The notes under the pieces were generated by a model. That model was not told where the DNA came from. It did not search any database and saw only the letters and a list, made by a program, of their open reading frames with translations. Of a stretch of 64,000 nucleotides of DNA, positions 1 through 49,506 are shown in pieces. Location of the stretch: contig JAKLFF010000002.1 of the NCBI GenBank assembly GCA_022711335.1, forward strand, positions 82,988 to 146,987. The letters are read 5' to 3'. Position 1 is the first letter of the stretch. Each line of letters opens with the position of its first letter. The translations under genes and the position numbers were made by a program. This DNA comes from Patescibacteria group bacterium. Its GTDB lineage: Bacteria; Patescibacteriota; Minisyncoccia; Moranbacterales; UBA2206.

Positions 1-1413
<1,413 letters not shown>

Positions 1414-6275: not shown

Positions 6276-7474
6276 TTCTCTATTGCTTTTTCATATACCA
6301 CCAGCATTTTTTTGGCGCAAACTGACGCCGTGAAATTTTCTCTGGCAATTCGCGCAGATTCTTCACCGGTTTTTTCCCTGAGTTTTTTATCCAAAATAAG
6401 TTTTGTGATCATATAGGCAAATTCCTTTTCTCCGGTTACGCAAGTCAGAAATCCGTTTCTGTTGTTTTGGACGAGACTAATCACGCCTGTCGCGCAGACA
6501 GCCACAACCGGAAGCCCCATATACATAGCCTCCGTAAGAACCATCCCTTGAGTTTCTGACTTAGAACCATAAACAAAAATATCTCCAGCCGCGTAGCAGT
6601 CTTTTATCTCCGATCTCGGAATTATTCCGGAAAAAACGACCTGCTCATAAATTCCATTGTCTTTGCAATATTTTTTAAGCTCCGGAAGGAGATATCCGTC
6701 TCCGGAAACCAAAAATTTCACATTTTTTCTTTCTTTGAGTATTTCCCTCACCGAGCGAAAAACAAATTCAATATTTTTTTCCGCCGTAAGCCGCGTTGCC
6801 AGGAACAAAAGAACTTCATTCTCTTTTATTCCATATTTATCACGAGCTTTTTTCCTGTCGGGATTTTTGAATTCTTCCTCGATTACTCCGGTAGGCACCA
6901 CATAGATTTCTTTTTTCACCCTGTTAAATACGCCTTCGGCGTCCCCGCCTTGCGGGGATTTAACAGGATGAACTCCCCAATTTTTGAGAATCGGAATGAC
7001 TGAATCTGTGGGAACCACGACCGCATCCGCCTGATTGGCAAATTTAACTGCTTTCTTGATCATATAGCCGGCAACAAATTTTTTTGGCAGAAACGGAACA
7101 AAATTCGCATAATAATCATAAAGAGTGTGCCAGGTAAAGACCAGCGGAACTTTTTTCCTTTTTGCCCACTTTCGGGCCGCTGATCCTAGAAGATTTGGAT
7201 GCTGGGAGTGGATTACATCGATTTTCAATTCGTTTAAAATTTTGCTAATTTTCCTCGAATATGGAATAACCAAAGGAAATTTTATTTTTATTTCAAGATT
7301 AATGGATGGGTAGCGGAAAATATTCGGATCTTTATCTGCATAGCCCGGAAAGTGCGGCGCGAAAATATATACAGTATGGCCAAGTTTTTCAAATTCCCTC
7401 CGAAAAGTTTCAATTGATGTCGAAACGCCATAGGGATTAGGAAGATAATTGTTCGTAAAAATTGCAATATTCAC
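6263..7474 (-). CDS. Glycosyltransferase family 4 (GT-B fold)
   Basis: Has the N-terminal IAIFTNNYLPNPYGVSTS motif and a C-terminal EXXXXXXXE-like region typical of GT4. The start is ambiguous. The ORF track uses TTG at 7507, but I favour GTG at 7474, which gives MNIAIF and directly abuts the element terminus. Confidence 0.75.
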   Translation of the reverse strand: MNIAIFTNNYLPNPYGVSTSIETFRREFEKLGHTVYIFAPHFPGYADKDPNIFRYPSINLEIKIKFPLVIPYSRKISKILNELKIDVIHSQHPNLLGSAARKWAKRKKVPLVFTWHTLYDYYANFVPFLPKKFVAGYMIKKAVKFANQADAVVVPTDSVIPILKNWGVHPVKSPQGGDAEGVFNRVKKEIYVVPTGVIEEEFKNPDRKKARDKYGIKENEVLLFLATRLTAEKNIEFVFRSVREILKERKNVKFLVSGDGYLLPELKKYCKDNGIYEQVVFSGIIPRSEIKDCYAAGDIFVYGSKSETQGMVLTEAMYMGLPVVAVCATGVISLVQNNRNGFLTCVTGEKEFAYMITKLILDKKLREKTGEESARIARENFTASVCAKKMLVVYEKAIENHSK

Positions 7475-7604
7475 CCGGTAGTGAAATTTTGACTGGCCTT
7501 CCGTCAATAAAGCATAGATGGCTCAGAAAAAATTTTATTAAAAATTATTCTAAATAAAAATTTTTGTAACCCGGGTTCTTTAATGTCAAAATTCTACTAC
7601 CGGG
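7474..7604. mobile_element. Inverted-repeat (MITE-like) element copy 1, 131 bp with 20-bp terminal inverted repeats and a 4-bp target duplication TTCA
   Basis: The left end is cccggtagtgaaattttgac at 7474-7493 and the right end is gtcaaaattctactaccggg at 7585-7604. ttca at 7470-7473 is repeated at 7605-8608 region start, namely 7605-7608. The interior is AT-rich. The glycosyltransferase GTG start overlaps the element terminus. Confidence 0.7.
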
Positions 7605-7611
7605 TTCATAA

Positions 7612-45901: not shown

Positions 45902-47677
45902 ATGTTTAGAAAAACTTCAGCGGTTTCCGGACTGGCACAGACCTTTCCGGGCGTAGCCGTAACACCGAAAACCGCCGAAAAAAAGGCGCCTTCTTTCCGT
46001 CCGGCCGGAAAAAGCAACCTTAAAATTATCCCTCTCGGAGGATTAGAAGAAGTCGGACGCAATATGACCATATTTGAATACGGCCATGATATTATTATTG
46101 TCGATATGGGCCTCCAATTCCCTGACGAAGACATGCCGGGAATTGACTACATCATTCCCGATGTGTCCTATCTCAAAGGAAAAGAAAAAAATATTTTGGG
46201 AGTCATCATTACTCATGGACATTACGACCACATCGGAGCTATTCCGCACATTATGGAAAAAATCGGCAACCCGCCGATTTATATGACGGAACTTACCCGC
46301 GGGATTGTAATGAAAAGGCAAGAAGAATTCAAAGATAAATCCCCGCTCAACATCCATACTGTAAAAAAAATAGACCGCATGCGATTGGGATCTTTTAATA
46401 TTGAATTTTTTCATGTCAATCATACTATTCCTGACGCGGTTGGATTGTCGATATCAACCCCGGTTGGAACCATAATTCATACCGGTGATTTTAAATTCGA
46501 TCATTCTCCGATATCCGACGCTCCAGCCGATATTGCCAAAATTGCGCGGCTGGGAAGCGAAAATATTCTGGCTCTCATGAGCGATTCGACTGACTCGCGC
46601 ACTCCCGGATATTCCCTCTCCGAATCGAGAATTTCCAAAACTTTGGAAGAAATATTCGAACACACCGAAGGACGGCTGATTATCGCCACTTTTTCCGCCC
46701 TTATTTCCCGTATCCAGTCAGTAGTAAATGCCGCGGAAAAATATGGAAGAAAACTGGCAGTCGACGGATATTCCATGAAAACCAACGTTGAAATCGCGAG
46801 AACCTTGGGATATATCCAGGCCAGAAAAGGAACTTTCATCCCTATTGGAAAAGTCAATGAATATCAGGACAACAAGGTGGCAATAATCTGCACCGGAGCG
46901 CAAGGAGAATCCAACGCTGTTCTTATGCGGATCGTAAACGGAGAACACCGATTCGTGAAAGTCCATAAAGACGACACCTTTGTGCTTTCCTCTTCGGTCA
47001 TTCCGGGAAATGAACGAACTGTCCAGGCCATTATGGACACGATTTATAGAAAGGACGCTAAAGTGATAAATTACAAAATGATGGATGTCCATGCCGGAGG
47101 GCACGCCCGACAGGAAGATCTCAAAATGATGATCAATCTCGTCCGTCCAAAATACCTGATCCCCATTCACGGAAACTATTTTATGCTAAAGCTCCATGGT
47201 GAACTGGGTACATCAGTGGGCATGGATCCGAAAAATATCTTGATTGGAGAAAATGGAAAAGTGATTGAATTCGATTATCGCGGAAACGGAAAGGTGACAA
47301 ACGAAAAAGTCCCAACCAATCATGTCATGGTGGACGGATTGGGCGTTGGCGACATCGGGCAAGTTGTTCTTCGCGACCGCCAGGTTCTGGCCAAAGACGG
47401 CATGTTTGTAATCACAACTATTGTTGACGGGAAAACAAACAAAATCATCGGAAAGCCGCAAGTAACCTCGAGAGGTTTCATATTCGTCAAGGAAAATTTC
47501 GACCTGGTTAATGCCACGAAAAAGAAAGTGGAAGAAGTCATTACCCAGAAAACCACGCCTAACGAACCGGCCAATTGGGATTATGTAAAAAACAACATTA
47601 GGGAAGTCGTCGGACAATTCCTCTATGCCAAAACCCAACGAAGACCGATGGTGCTGCCTGTTATCATAGAAGTTTAA
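45902..47677 (+). CDS. rnj: Ribonuclease J (metallo-beta-lactamase / beta-CASP RNase)
   Basis: Has the HxHxDH motif IITHGHYDHIGAIP and beta-CASP motifs. The N-terminal extension is unusual and the alternative TTG start at 45887 is possible. Confidence 0.85.
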   Translation: MFRKTSAVSGLAQTFPGVAVTPKTAEKKAPSFRPAGKSNLKIIPLGGLEEVGRNMTIFEYGHDIIIVDMGLQFPDEDMPGIDYIIPDVSYLKGKEKNILGVIITHGHYDHIGAIPHIMEKIGNPPIYMTELTRGIVMKRQEEFKDKSPLNIHTVKKIDRMRLGSFNIEFFHVNHTIPDAVGLSISTPVGTIIHTGDFKFDHSPISDAPADIAKIARLGSENILALMSDSTDSRTPGYSLSESRISKTLEEIFEHTEGRLIIATFSALISRIQSVVNAAEKYGRKLAVDGYSMKTNVEIARTLGYIQARKGTFIPIGKVNEYQDNKVAIICTGAQGESNAVLMRIVNGEHRFVKVHKDDTFVLSSSVIPGNERTVQAIMDTIYRKDAKVINYKMMDVHAGGHARQEDLKMMINLVRPKYLIPIHGNYFMLKLHGELGTSVGMDPKNILIGENGKVIEFDYRGNGKVTNEKVPTNHVMVDGLGVGDIGQVVLRDRQVLAKDGMFVITTIVDGKTNKIIGKPQVTSRGFIFVKENFDLVNATKKKVEEVITQKTTPNEPANWDYVKNNIREVVGQFLYAKTQRRPMVLPVIIEV

Positions 47678-47695
47678 AATCTGATTGTATTGTAG

Positions 47696-47722
47696 AGACG
47701 CCCCAATGGGGCGTCTTTTTTG
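47696..47722. terminator. Bidirectional rho-independent terminator
   Basis: agacgcccc-aat-ggggcgtct followed by ttttttg. A convergent gene ends on each side. Confidence 0.7.
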
Positions 47723-47731
47723 TTCTATGTT

Positions 47732-48085
47732 TTATGTTATTCTCCGAAAAGTTATCTTATAAACCGGCTCGTAGGAATTGTCATATTGGTCTTTGACGGC
47801 CACCGTTTTTCCGTCCATAAGCGTGCTCATGGCGACATCCGTTATCATCTCGTTCAGTTCCTTGGCTCTGGCCTTCAGTTTTTCAAATTCATCCCATCTT
47901 CCGCCCATTCTTGACTGGGTTATGCTTTCGATTTGCTTCTTTTTTTCTTTTAACTCTTTAAGTTTTTCTTCAGTTTCTGGAAACTCGTTGGCATTGCCCA
48001 GCGCGTCTTTATATTCCTTTCTTATTTCCTTTTGCTGCTTTTTATTTTCTTCGAGTTCGCTATAAATCTCCTGGATGTCTCGCAT
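47732..48085 (-). CDS. Hypothetical coiled-coil protein of 117 aa
   Basis: K/E-rich with no recognisable domain. Its ATG lies inside the 4-bp target duplication of inverted-repeat element copy 2. Confidence 0.5.
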   Translation of the reverse strand: MRDIQEIYSELEENKKQQKEIRKEYKDALGNANEFPETEEKLKELKEKKKQIESITQSRMGGRWDEFEKLKARAKELNEMITDVAMSTLMDGKTVAVKDQYDNSYEPVYKITFRRIT

Positions 48086-48087
48086 AC

Positions 48088-48214
48088 CCGGTAGTAGAAT
48101 TTTGACTTTTGAATATAAAAATCAAAATCCCATGTTATTATTTAATTAATTATTTTTAACCACGTTTAACCTCAAAACACTGACTCCCGGATCAGTCAAA
48201 ATTCTACTACCGGG
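48088..48214. mobile_element. Inverted-repeat (MITE-like) element copy 2, 127 bp with perfect 20-bp terminal inverted repeats and target duplication CATA
   Basis: cccggtagtagaattttgac ... gtcaaaattctactaccggg. cata lies immediately outside both ends; on the minus strand it reads TATG and supplies the start codon of the gene at 47732-48085. Confidence 0.7.
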
Positions 48215-48363
48215 CATAATCTAAATTTTAAAAAATTAAAATATAGCCGGATCGGCTACAGAAATATTTTAGCATGAATTTAAAATGTAGGGAACGCATA
48301 TATGCGTTCCCTGATACTTGATACTTGATACTTTATGCCCATTACTTTATACTAAAACCATGA

Positions 48364-48504
48364 CCCGGTAGTGAAATTTTGACTGGCTTTTCTACAGAAA
48401 AGCCAACAACCGGGCTAATGTTTTTTTGCAAAAAATAATTATTTTGTGCATAAATAAAAATTTTGGCTTTTATAAGCAATAGATGTCAAAATTCTACTAC
48501 CGGG
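48364..48504. mobile_element. Inverted-repeat (MITE-like) element copy 3, 141 bp with 20-bp terminal inverted repeats and target duplication ATGA
   Basis: cccggtagtgaaattttgac(tggc) ... gtcaaaattctactaccggg. atga at 48360-48363 is repeated at 48505-48508, and the right-hand copy is the trpS ATG. Confidence 0.72.
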
Positions 48505-49506
48505 ATGAGCAAACAGCGCATCTTTTCCGGCGTTGCGCCGTCCGGAAACATACATATAGGCAACTATCTTGGAGCCATTAAAAACTGGGTTAAGCTTCAA
48601 GACGAATGCGACTCTATTTTTTGCGTGGTTGATATGCATGCTATTACCCTGCCAAGAGATCCGGAGGAGCTTAGAAAAAAAACTATCGAAGTAGCTAAAA
48701 TTTATCTGGCTAGCGGAATCGACTTAGAAAAATCGACTTTATTTATACAATCTCATATACCCGAACACGCGGAATTATCCTGGATATTAAACACAATCGC
48801 CCGAACCGGCGAAATGTCCCGCATGACCCAATTCAAGGATAAAGCTGAACTTCACAGTGGAAATAGCAGCACCATGGAAAGTGTGCCGCTTGGAATATTT
48901 AATTATCCGGTATTAATGGCCGCTGATATTTTACTCTACGACACGCAAGTGGTTCCTGTCGGAAAAGACCAGCTGCAGCATATTGAAATTACCAGAACCC
49001 TGGCTAATAGATTTAACAAAAGATTCGGCAATACCTTTATTGTTCCTGAACCTTATATCACAAAAGAAGGAGCTAATATCATGGGCCTCGACGATCCAAC
49101 TAAGAAAATGTCAAAATCCGCTAAATCTGACTACAATTACATTGCTCTTAATGACTCCGAAGAAGATGTCCGGAGAAAAATCAAAAAAGCTGTCACTGAC
49201 AGCGGATCGGAAATAGTTTATAGAGATGATAAACCGGCGCTGATGAATCTGATTAATATTTATTCCCTACTCTCAGATAAACCCGCCAAAGAGATTGAAA
49301 AACAATATAAAGGTAAAGGCTACGCTGAATTCAAAACAGATTTAGCTGAAGTTATTATAAAATTTATGAATCCTTTTCAGGAAAAAATGAATGATCTTTC
49401 GGATGAAAAAGTTCTTGAAATCCTTCGCGAAGGCGCCGAAAAAGTCCGCCCGATCGCCAAAAATAAGCTTGATGAAGTCAAAAAAAAAATCGGCTTTGTA
49501 TTGTAA
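48505..49506 (+). CDS. trpS: Tryptophan--tRNA ligase
   Basis: MSKQRIFSGVAPSGNIHIGNYLGA has the HIGH-class motif and KKMSKSAKS is the KMSKS motif. The start was chosen at the ATG abutting the element; the ORF-track TTG at 48463 reads through the element. Confidence 0.9.
   Translation: MSKQRIFSGVAPSGNIHIGNYLGAIKNWVKLQDECDSIFCVVDMHAITLPRDPEELRKKTIEVAKIYLASGIDLEKSTLFIQSHIPEHAELSWILNTIARTGEMSRMTQFKDKAELHSGNSSTMESVPLGIFNYPVLMAADILLYDTQVVPVGKDQLQHIEITRTLANRFNKRFGNTFIVPEPYITKEGANIMGLDDPTKKMSKSAKSDYNYIALNDSEEDVRRKIKKAVTDSGSEIVYRDDKPALMNLINIYSLLSDKPAKEIEKQYKGKGYAEFKTDLAEVIIKFMNPFQEKMNDLSDEKVLEILREGAEKVRPIAKNKLDEVKKKIGFVL

Follow-up and report, generated by a model that had tools for sequence, protein, structure and literature searches.

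A window of 64,000 nucleotides (that is, the whole stretch of DNA analysed, from contig JAKLFF010000002.1 of a Patescibacteria group bacterium in the Moranbacterales) contains a 128-nt element with perfect inverted repeats, which is called c2 here, and we conclude that c2 is a real, gene-less mobile insertion into the TATG at the start of a gene for a 117-aa protein. Of the two resulting copies of the ATG, one remains attached to the native upstream region and the other to the open reading frame (ORF) of this gene. [quoted passage not shown] A more tentative proposal, which seems to us possible rather than probable, is that the family represents an undescribed class of element: its sole protein would be a minimal GIY-YIG nuclease that has no start codon and is expressed by integration of the element on a host start codon (often the +1 of a leaderless transcript), the target duplication would return an ATG to the host gene, and ORF-less derivatives would keep both target and orientation and then join the expression signals of the host.

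The element c2 and its empty sites

The two arms of c2, CCCGGTAGTAGAATTTTGAC and its exact reverse complement GTCAAAATTCTACTACCGGG, agree at 20 of 20 positions across an 88-nt spacer, as read in the sequence and as returned by a repeat finder, and CATA lies immediately outside either end (Table 1). Read on the minus strand, the left-hand CATA is TATG and supplies the ATG of the 117-aa ORF; since 75 homologues of the protein begin at the same conserved MRDIQE..., this ATG is the true start codon. The matching ends, the flanking CATA and its use as the start codon had been noticed in the initial annotation and hold, apart from a trivial offset in its start coordinate (48084, one base inside the left CATA). 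When up to three mismatches are allowed, the 20-mer of the arm occurs six times in the window, as the three inverted pairs of c1, c2 and c3, against 0.00 occurrences expected from 100 shuffles. The longest coding stretch of c2 is a 23-codon ORF that is read in from outside, and no transposase ORF is present; c2 is thus small and without a transposase ORF, and has TIRs, a target duplication with empty sites, and dispersed copies, which together describe a MITE. The arms of the family are of two types, A (..GTAGTAGAATT..) and B (..GTAGTGAAATT..), which differ by a swapped dinucleotide. In having two A arms c2 is unusual, and L060 (loci are given L numbers), a contig from the same population, has the normal A/B pair, with a distal arm of B type, GTCAAAATTTCACTACCGGG.

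The insertion itself is evident from relatives that lack it. In an orthologue with 96% identity (L063), the matching upstream DNA, ...gtagccgatccggctatattttaattttttaaaattta.., directly joins a single TATGCGAGAC and the element is absent; L064/L065 (87%) and L066 (86%) are likewise empty, with the native upstream region joined to one (T)ATG, and trpS, the gene that carries c3 in the window, is also without an element in L066. Between the filled allele of the window and the empty allele the difference is exactly 128 + 4 nt, as in a textbook case. Because the same upstream DNA runs into a single TATG in L063, c2 is an insertion accompanied by a 4-bp duplication. The initial annotation had proposed a mobile inverted-repeat element whose CATA/TATG duplication regenerates the ATG, and had suggested a comparison with relatives for an uninterrupted 5' region; this region was looked for and is present in L063, L064/L065, and L066, and the proposal is borne out by these filled and empty sites and also by the variable duplications at the 99 family sites among the matches listed.

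A recent date for the insertion, which the initial annotation had suggested on account of the perfect repeats, is less secure. L060 carries c2 with normal A/B arms, and arms are near-perfect even in old orthologous insertions; perfect repeats are therefore no clock. What bears on the date is that c2 is absent from the lineage with 96% identity and present in every same-population contig read, so that recency may be retained only as a possibility. No empty site for c2 or c3 was found among the same-population contigs read, and the orientation was single in 17 of 17 contigs. L060 encodes an identical 117-aa protein, but all similarity to the window is lost about 45 nt past c2 (L060 positions 100-300 against window positions 48260-48360), and it has a different neighbour gene in place of trpS, which points to a rearrangement breakpoint near the elements; L060 was considered as an empty c3 site and rejected, as the apparent absence is due to this change in synteny.

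A family of insertions at start codons

An exact-pattern scan for the arms, with one genome per species, gave 35 loci, and a metagenome scan gave at least 116 further loci; the family statistics are based on 134 arm pairs at 99 distinct sites, and all of them refer to the matches listed. The paired copies are almost all in Patescibacteria (Moranbacteria, Parcubacteria, and Saccharibacteria) and fall into two size classes, 64-89 nt and 110-149 nt. At 67 of the 99 sites, a start codon that opens an ORF is found 0 or 1 nt past the A arm (63 ATG and 4 GTG), and the orientation is strongly biased, with the B arm upstream and the A arm at the gene in 59 cases and the reverse in 2. On the gene strand, the duplications read TATG (36), ATG (17), ATGA (3), TGAA (3), and AATG (1), and duplications containing ATG are at real ORF starts in 57 of 60 cases. 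In the window, there are 538 TATG sites, of which 36 are crude gene starts and 81 are intergenic non-starts; random insertion followed by purging of gene-disrupting copies would accordingly place about 31% of copies at starts, and the observed 57/60 is far above this expectation.

Several matches were set aside. Three single-arm matches in metagenome-assembled genomes (MAGs) that are labelled as non-Patescibacteria (L001, L004, and L023) are at chance level, given 18 specified bases and 596 Gb, and where paired copies occur in MAGs with the labels Delta-/Pseudomonadota/Bdellovibrionales, they have orthologues at loci of the candidate phyla radiation (CPR) or are apparently mis-binned. Twelve viral-contig matches (L186-L197) all fall in the same conserved phage coding sequence, where an arm-like 20-mer occurs once and has no partner, and are coincidental; no paired element was found among these twelve.

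Most of the sites away from start codons belong to a subfamily of 72-85 nt, which has two internal hairpins, duplications of (C)TTG(A) or TCAA(G), both orientations, and a flank consensus near GGGG(C)TTGAC (L003, L027, L085, L102, L122, L132, L141, L158, L160, and others); some of its sites resemble -35 boxes, for example TTGACA-17-GATAAT in L027. Judging from the flanks, therefore, target preference differs among subfamilies that share the same arms. A related arm, CCCYGTAGTAGATTTTCGGC (L014 at 3775 and 4392; L024 at 1342; L025 at 3958 and 6948), is always preceded by TCAA or TTGA, and such arms may mark a further branch that has a target of its own. A copy nested within another copy was also observed (L137, 1066-1133).

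When 57 native upstream flanks were aligned on the upstream ATG, a TATAAT-like signal appeared at -12..-7, together with T at -1. A -10 signal at -12..-7 is the geometry of a leaderless gene, in which transcription starts at the A of the ATG. TANNNT is located exactly at -12..-7 in 19 of 57 targets and in 6 of 57 crudely called genes of the window (Fisher p = 0.006), although the crudeness of these background start calls makes the enrichment suggestive only. About a third of the targets thus look leaderless, and the native trpS promoter, TTGATA-17-TATACT-6-ATG, fits the same pattern. Shine-Dalgarno-like motifs are rare in the targets (4/57) and in the genes of the window (5/57). Throughout the window (57-61 crude gene calls), TATG, with T at -1, is the commonest start context (33/57). 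Insertions are found also at operon-internal starts (c1, L036, and L185), which means that a mechanism acting through transcription starts is not the whole story.

The arms appear to be under constraint. In 26 pairs of orthologous insertions from different species-level genomes, identity is 96-97% in the arms, 80% in the first 150 nt of the coding sequence (CDS), 72% in the interior, and 69% in the upstream flank; the figure for the arms is inflated by the fetching of loci through exact arm matches, but the arm of each pair on which the search pattern made no demand is equally conserved. Variants of the arms are matched on both sides (for example, CCCAG/CTGGG, CCCCG/CGGGG, and TTTGGAC/GTCCAAA), and many compensatory changes (among them TGGCC/GGCCA, TAGCC/GGCTA, TGGAC/GTCCG, and TGGGC/GCCCG) are seen in the small hairpin that follows the B arm, the loop of which is often of the UUCG type. 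An A·C mismatch and a G·U pair are nonetheless conserved in the middle of the stem between B and A, and perfect pairing itself is hence not what is selected. These results suggest a constraint on the arms in addition to mobility. In the initial annotation, conservation in distant lineages with compensatory substitutions in the two arms had been named as a sign of a selected RNA structure rather than of mobility; copies are indeed conserved across lineages, and arms and hairpins co-vary, but mobility is not overturned.

The three copies in the window each have a 4-nt direct duplication (TTCA for c1, CATA for c2, and ATGA for c3), and all three touch a start codon; only the 20-nt arms are conserved among them, the interiors being AT-rich and barely alignable. 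Immediately after the A arm of c3 comes the ATG of trpS (48505). Insertions at trpS are seen in the window (c3; ATGA, 141 nt), in L025 (TATG, 76 nt), and in L020 (TATG, 88 nt), and this gene was thus struck independently at least twice and probably three times. The copy c1 adjoins a glycosyltransferase ORF, the original ATG of which (7609..7607) is split by the TGAA duplication; the ORF now starts with GTG (7474..7472), composed of the terminal G of the arm and the duplicated TG. Relative to its host gene c1 is inverted, as one of only two such cases among 61 oriented sites. The same conversion of ATG to GTG is also seen at the TGAA sites L007 and L106.

Table 1. Positions of c2, its host gene, and the other two copies in the window
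Feature	Position	Strand	Remarks
Host gene, conserved 117-aa hypothetical protein	47732..48085	-	ORF intact
Gene-proximal target duplication, TATG	48083..48086	-	working ATG (48085..48083) of the 117-aa gene; empty sites have a single (T)ATG here
c2 gene-side arm, A type	48087..48106	.	plus strand, CCCGGTAGTAGAATTTTGAC; gene strand, GTCAAAATTCTACTACCGGG with TATG next to it downstream
c2 interior, 88 nt, AT-rich	48107..48194	.	23-codon read-in ORF MPGSRILTDPGVSVLRLNVVKNN; poorly conserved against c1 and c3
CCCGG-like motif in the c2 interior	48187-48191		
c2 distal arm, A type in the window	48195..48214	.	GTCAAAATTCTACTACCGGG; gives the 20/20 match
Distal target duplication, TATG	48215..48218	-	original start codon, still in contact with the native upstream sequence
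Native 5' region of the 117-aa gene	48219..48262	-	now split off; same sequence abuts the ATG in L063
TAAAAT, -10-like box	48230..48225	-	7 nt before the distal ATG
Native trpS promoter-like site	48325..48353	+	TTGATA-17-TATACT; ends 6 nt before the upstream ATG copy at 48360; leaderless-type layout
c3, 141 nt (48364-48504)	48360..48508 with duplications	+	on the trpS start codon
c3 duplication, ATGA	48360-48363 and 48505-48508	+	
c3 B arm; GC hairpin; A arm	48364-48383; 48385-48406; 48485-48504	+	
c1, 131 nt (7474-7604)	7470..7608 with duplications	-	TTCA at 7470-7473 and 7605-7608
c1 B arm; A arm	7474-7493; 7585-7604		

Some further features lie between the divergent 117-aa gene and trpS. 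A terminator-like hairpin with a T-run (48260..48242, minus strand) forms part of the 5' region belonging to the 117-aa gene and is kept in relatives without the element, and a perfect 12+12 palindrome, AGGGAACGCATA/TATGCGTTCCCT, is located at 48289-48312; terminators are not expected at such a position between divergent genes. Also, GATACTT is repeated three times in tandem (48313-48333), overlapping the -35 box of trpS (TTGATA, 48325-48330).

Full-length relatives and expression around the insertion

At L017, arms of this kind, CCCGGTAGTACAATTTCGAA and TTCGAAGTTGTACTACCGGG, bound a 345-nt element with a TATG duplication, and the sole ORF between them encodes a nuclease of about 95 aa with a GIY-YIG domain (PF01541, E = 3.6e-15). 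The ORF has no start codon of its own and is in frame with the upstream host ATG through the arm (ATG followed by CCC GGT AGT ACA..., that is, MPGST...). Five such full-length elements of 300-350 bp (L017, L036, L183, L184, and L185) have the same arrangement, in which (T)ATG, the left arm, the GIY-YIG ORF, the right arm, and the (T)ATG of the host gene follow one another, and their host genes are unrelated (an unnamed gene, a PrgI-like gene, a Wzy_C ligase, AbiEii, and adenylate kinase). The stop codon of the nuclease is directly before the right arm in L036, L183, and L185 (TAA) and 8 nt before it in L017; in L184, the arms of which are degenerate, the ORF runs through the right arm and ends just past the host ATG. 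In L185 (adenylate kinase; 498-503), decay has turned the upstream start codon into ATT, and mismatches are present in the arms; this element is probably old and inactivated, with an ORF that annotation still counts as a protein.

The full-length arm of L017 is identical to the A arm of the window at 17 of 20 positions. A 143-nt ORF-less copy is found 1.5 kb from this element on the same contig and matches the window arm at 19/20; through this MITE, the arms of full-length and window elements are connected at 18-19/20, and none are identical. Furthermore, a subterminal hairpin followed by AACCGGGC is present both in a full-length element (L036) and in ORF-less copies including c3.

A protein search gave 120 homologues, which are about 95 aa long and come for the most part from metagenomes of Patescibacteria, and the arm-encoded start MP[GS]xT (MPGSTTSN, MPGRTNSN, MPSSTTS...) is found in 78 of them and, behind an over-long gene call, in 4 more. 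For P0070, one of the arm-fused nucleases, 621 relatives were obtained at E <= 1e-10 in representatives at 50% identity, and most of these have an ordinary start, MFYTYVL... and not MPGST...; this makes the arm-fused proteins a narrow clade within a large family. Among solved structures, those of the single-domain UPF0213 proteins 1YWL and 1ZG2 are the nearest.

Other arrangements of GIY-YIG genes were also noticed. L108 (1652-2103) is a composite, in which a window-type ORF-less copy is followed 26 nt on by a GIY-YIG ORF with its own ATG, and the right arm of the composite, TTCGAAATTTCTACCACCGG, is 4 nt before the host ATG. Other small GIY-YIG genes, which lack these arms, adjoin or separate tRNA-like sequences in L070, L090, L114, L160, and L164 (two genes), with the exception of L179, where the arm-less gene is located between direct repeats, AAATTTAYCCTGCACYTTT. 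Such arm-less genes suggest further mobile lifestyles of this nuclease family in Patescibacteria.

As RNA, c2 has a predicted fold of -51.5 kcal/mol (z = -8.0 against shuffles) and c3 one of -50.1 kcal/mol, and the 20-bp stem of the arms ends at the host AUG, covering it in part. No family reached its gathering threshold in an Rfam scan of 47500-48800 (E <= 10), the best match being a generic long hairpin (a microRNA precursor) with 26.9 bits against the required 140. After insertion, the native promoter and the first ATG would drive the read-in ORF, giving the nuclease in full-length elements and a short peptide in ORF-less copies; the read-in ORFs encode MPGSEILT... in short copies, MPGSRILTDPGVSVLRLNVVKNN in c2, and MTR in c3.

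Expression of the host gene would then continue by way of read-through transcripts. In four of the five full-length elements the nuclease stop is about 21-30 nt before the host ATG, which makes reinitiation or unmasking plausible there. Translational coupling as a general route was rejected for the long ORF-less copies, in which the read-in ORFs mostly end 50-100 nt before the host ATG, so that simple termination-reinitiation cannot explain the host expression. Ribosomes that cross the B arm by way of the short read-in ORF (MPGSRILT...) might instead melt the 20-bp stem over the host AUG; an internal promoter might have escaped recognition, though no convincing one was found within c2; or RNase processing at the stem might take place and could even recreate a leaderless 5'-AUG, the stem of the Correia TIRs being processed by RNase III (PMC10969869). 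The arm was also considered as a -10 box for a new leaderless transcript and rejected, as TCTACT is without the critical A at -11.

Competing explanations, known systems, and significance

In the explanation that we tentatively favor, a full-length element would parasitize the promoter, the transcription start, and the initiation codon of its host gene to express the nuclease, and the nuclease, alone or together with host repair functions, would make the 3-4-nt staggered cuts by which full-length and ORF-less copies are both mobilized. The window copies would be ORF-less derivatives mobilized in trans. Copies fixed before essential genes such as trpS would become host expression signals, and this would explain the exceptional conservation of the arms.

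A number of points weigh against this explanation, in addition to the crude background start calls and the early ends of the read-in ORFs in long copies described above. About a third of the sites (~32) are not at start codons, and the location at start codons and the orientation bias of ORF-less copies could partly come from selection at the level of the host. A full-length element with exactly the window arms was found neither in the 35 genome loci nor in the at least 116 metagenome loci, and there is no GIY-YIG gene within the window. The protein of 95 aa has no obvious DNA-binding domain, and we know of no GIY-YIG enzyme that acts as a transposase. Also, the GIY-YIG cuts that are known leave 3' overhangs of 1-2 nt, as opposed to the stagger of 3-4 nt implied here.

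Some of these points would be expected if the copies were MITEs of a conventional insertion sequence (IS) with a DDE-type transposase, yet to be found, and if the GIY-YIG ORF were passenger cargo. TIRs together with a short duplication of the target classically mark DDE transposition, the GIY-YIG protein is very small, with the catalytic domain only, and no autonomous partner with identical arms is among the loci listed. None of the 134 arm pairs, nonetheless, encloses a transposase, the GIY-YIG ORF being the only ORF between arms, and a start-less ORF that continues the arm in frame, as in 82 of 120 homologues across many lineages, is unexpected of occasional cargo; a review of prokaryotic MITEs from 2024 does not contain the term "start codon" (PMC10969869). 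We therefore regard a DDE-type origin as unlikely. The constraint on the arms raises another alternative, namely that selection maintains the repeats primarily as a structure that acts in cis on host regulation, either a hairpin in an RNA leader or a pair of protein operators, and that they are not mobile DNA. The identity of about 97% in arms against about 80% in the CDS and 72% in the interior of orthologous insertions, the arm variants matched on both sides, the co-varying hairpin after the B arm, the fixed orientation, and the very stable fold would all suit it. The arm conservation is, however, inflated by ascertainment, and matched variants are expected equally of two ends that are recognized by one protein; empty sites in close relatives, variable duplications, unrelated host genes, and relatives encoding a nuclease make such a structure improbable as the origin of these repeats. 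Secondary co-option after insertion is possible and is compatible with the explanation through start-codon insertion.

An invertible promoter (inverton), flipped by a site-specific invertase, has hardly any likelihood in our view. Repeats do flank an AT-rich segment upstream of genes, and c1 has the opposite orientation, but c1 is inverted as a whole, arms included, the orientation ratio is 59:2, and all same-population contigs read have a single orientation; indeed, duplications and empty sites indicate insertion, no recombinase is adjacent, and c2 contains no convincing promoter. A reading of the element as an integron attC site was rejected on anatomy.

Among known elements, the Correia elements of Neisseria (Correia repeat enclosed elements, CREE, or nemis) are similar in having about 100-150 bp, TIRs of about 20-26 nt, a short duplication, and many copies upstream of genes, and both they and the c2 family are transcribed into long hairpins. 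The Correia TIR stem is a substrate of RNase III, and the element can supply promoters (PMC10969869). In contrast to the c2 family, Correia elements have a 26-nt TIR, a TA duplication, no tie to start codons, no rule of orientation, and no known autonomous partner, whereas the c2 family has ATG in the duplication, the A arm at the start codon, GIY-YIG relatives, hosts in another phylum, and no sequence similarity to them. The IS200/IS605 elements and the palindrome-associated transposable elements (PATEs) are likewise small, with hairpin ends, a short target of 4-5 nt abutting one end, and a fixed orientation, and the target of the c2 family appears to depend on the subfamily (TATG or CTTGA) as it does in IS200/IS605. 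IS200/IS605 elements have neither TIRs nor a target duplication and move by an HUH Y1 transposase; the c2 family, which has both perfect TIRs and target duplications, differs from them, and a HUH ORF was not found in it.

The full-length elements resemble GIY-YIG homing endonuclease genes such as I-TevI and T4 Seg in that they are selfish, have the nuclease as sole product, and insert in or near host genes with minimal damage; the GIY-YIG domain is present in the full-length relatives only and not in the window copy. Homing enzymes have an extra DNA-binding domain and one cognate site, and their genes spread by double-strand-break repair, with no TIRs or target duplications. The full-length elements, unlike them, encode a single catalytic domain of about 95 aa and occupy many unrelated sites, with TIRs and duplications of 3-4 bp. 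UPF0213/YhbQ-type proteins (1YWL and 1ZG2), the closest relatives by sequence among solved structures, have the same size and single-domain architecture as the nuclease but are chromosomal, with their own start codons and no described mobility. There is also a formal resemblance to translational bypass (byp) elements and the hop in T4 gene 60, where a structured insert is placed between identical codons, here ATG...ATG; unlike a byp element, the insert precedes the ORF and is not inside it, and the resemblance is one of sequence layout alone.

In the literature searched, which excludes most subscription journals, we found no bacterial TIR element with a GIY-YIG nuclease as its only gene, and, with the same incomplete coverage, no element that has no start codon and borrows that of its host and no MITE family defined by insertion at start codons. 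The family is therefore apparently undescribed. While c2 is ordinary in form, as a MITE, the biology of its family is remarkable for oriented insertion at start codons and for a start-less GIY-YIG nuclease as the only candidate for the mobilizing enzyme.

If the proposal is true, GIY-YIG nucleases would join the short list of enzymes that move DNA transposons, and a nuclease or integration system that recognizes start codons or transcription starts would be of biotechnological interest. For the annotation of CPR genomes, the elements are a source of error, as they give rise to spurious small proteins beginning with MPGS..., to wrong starts, and to GTG starts made from the terminal G of the arm. 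The findings also bear on gene expression in Patescibacteria, where Shine-Dalgarno sites are few and many promoters are apparently leaderless, and where essential genes such as trpS evidently tolerate a hairpin of -50 kcal/mol right on the start codon. The capture of a host initiation codon and promoter, with the damage repaired by the target duplication, would then be a new parasitic strategy among bacterial elements.

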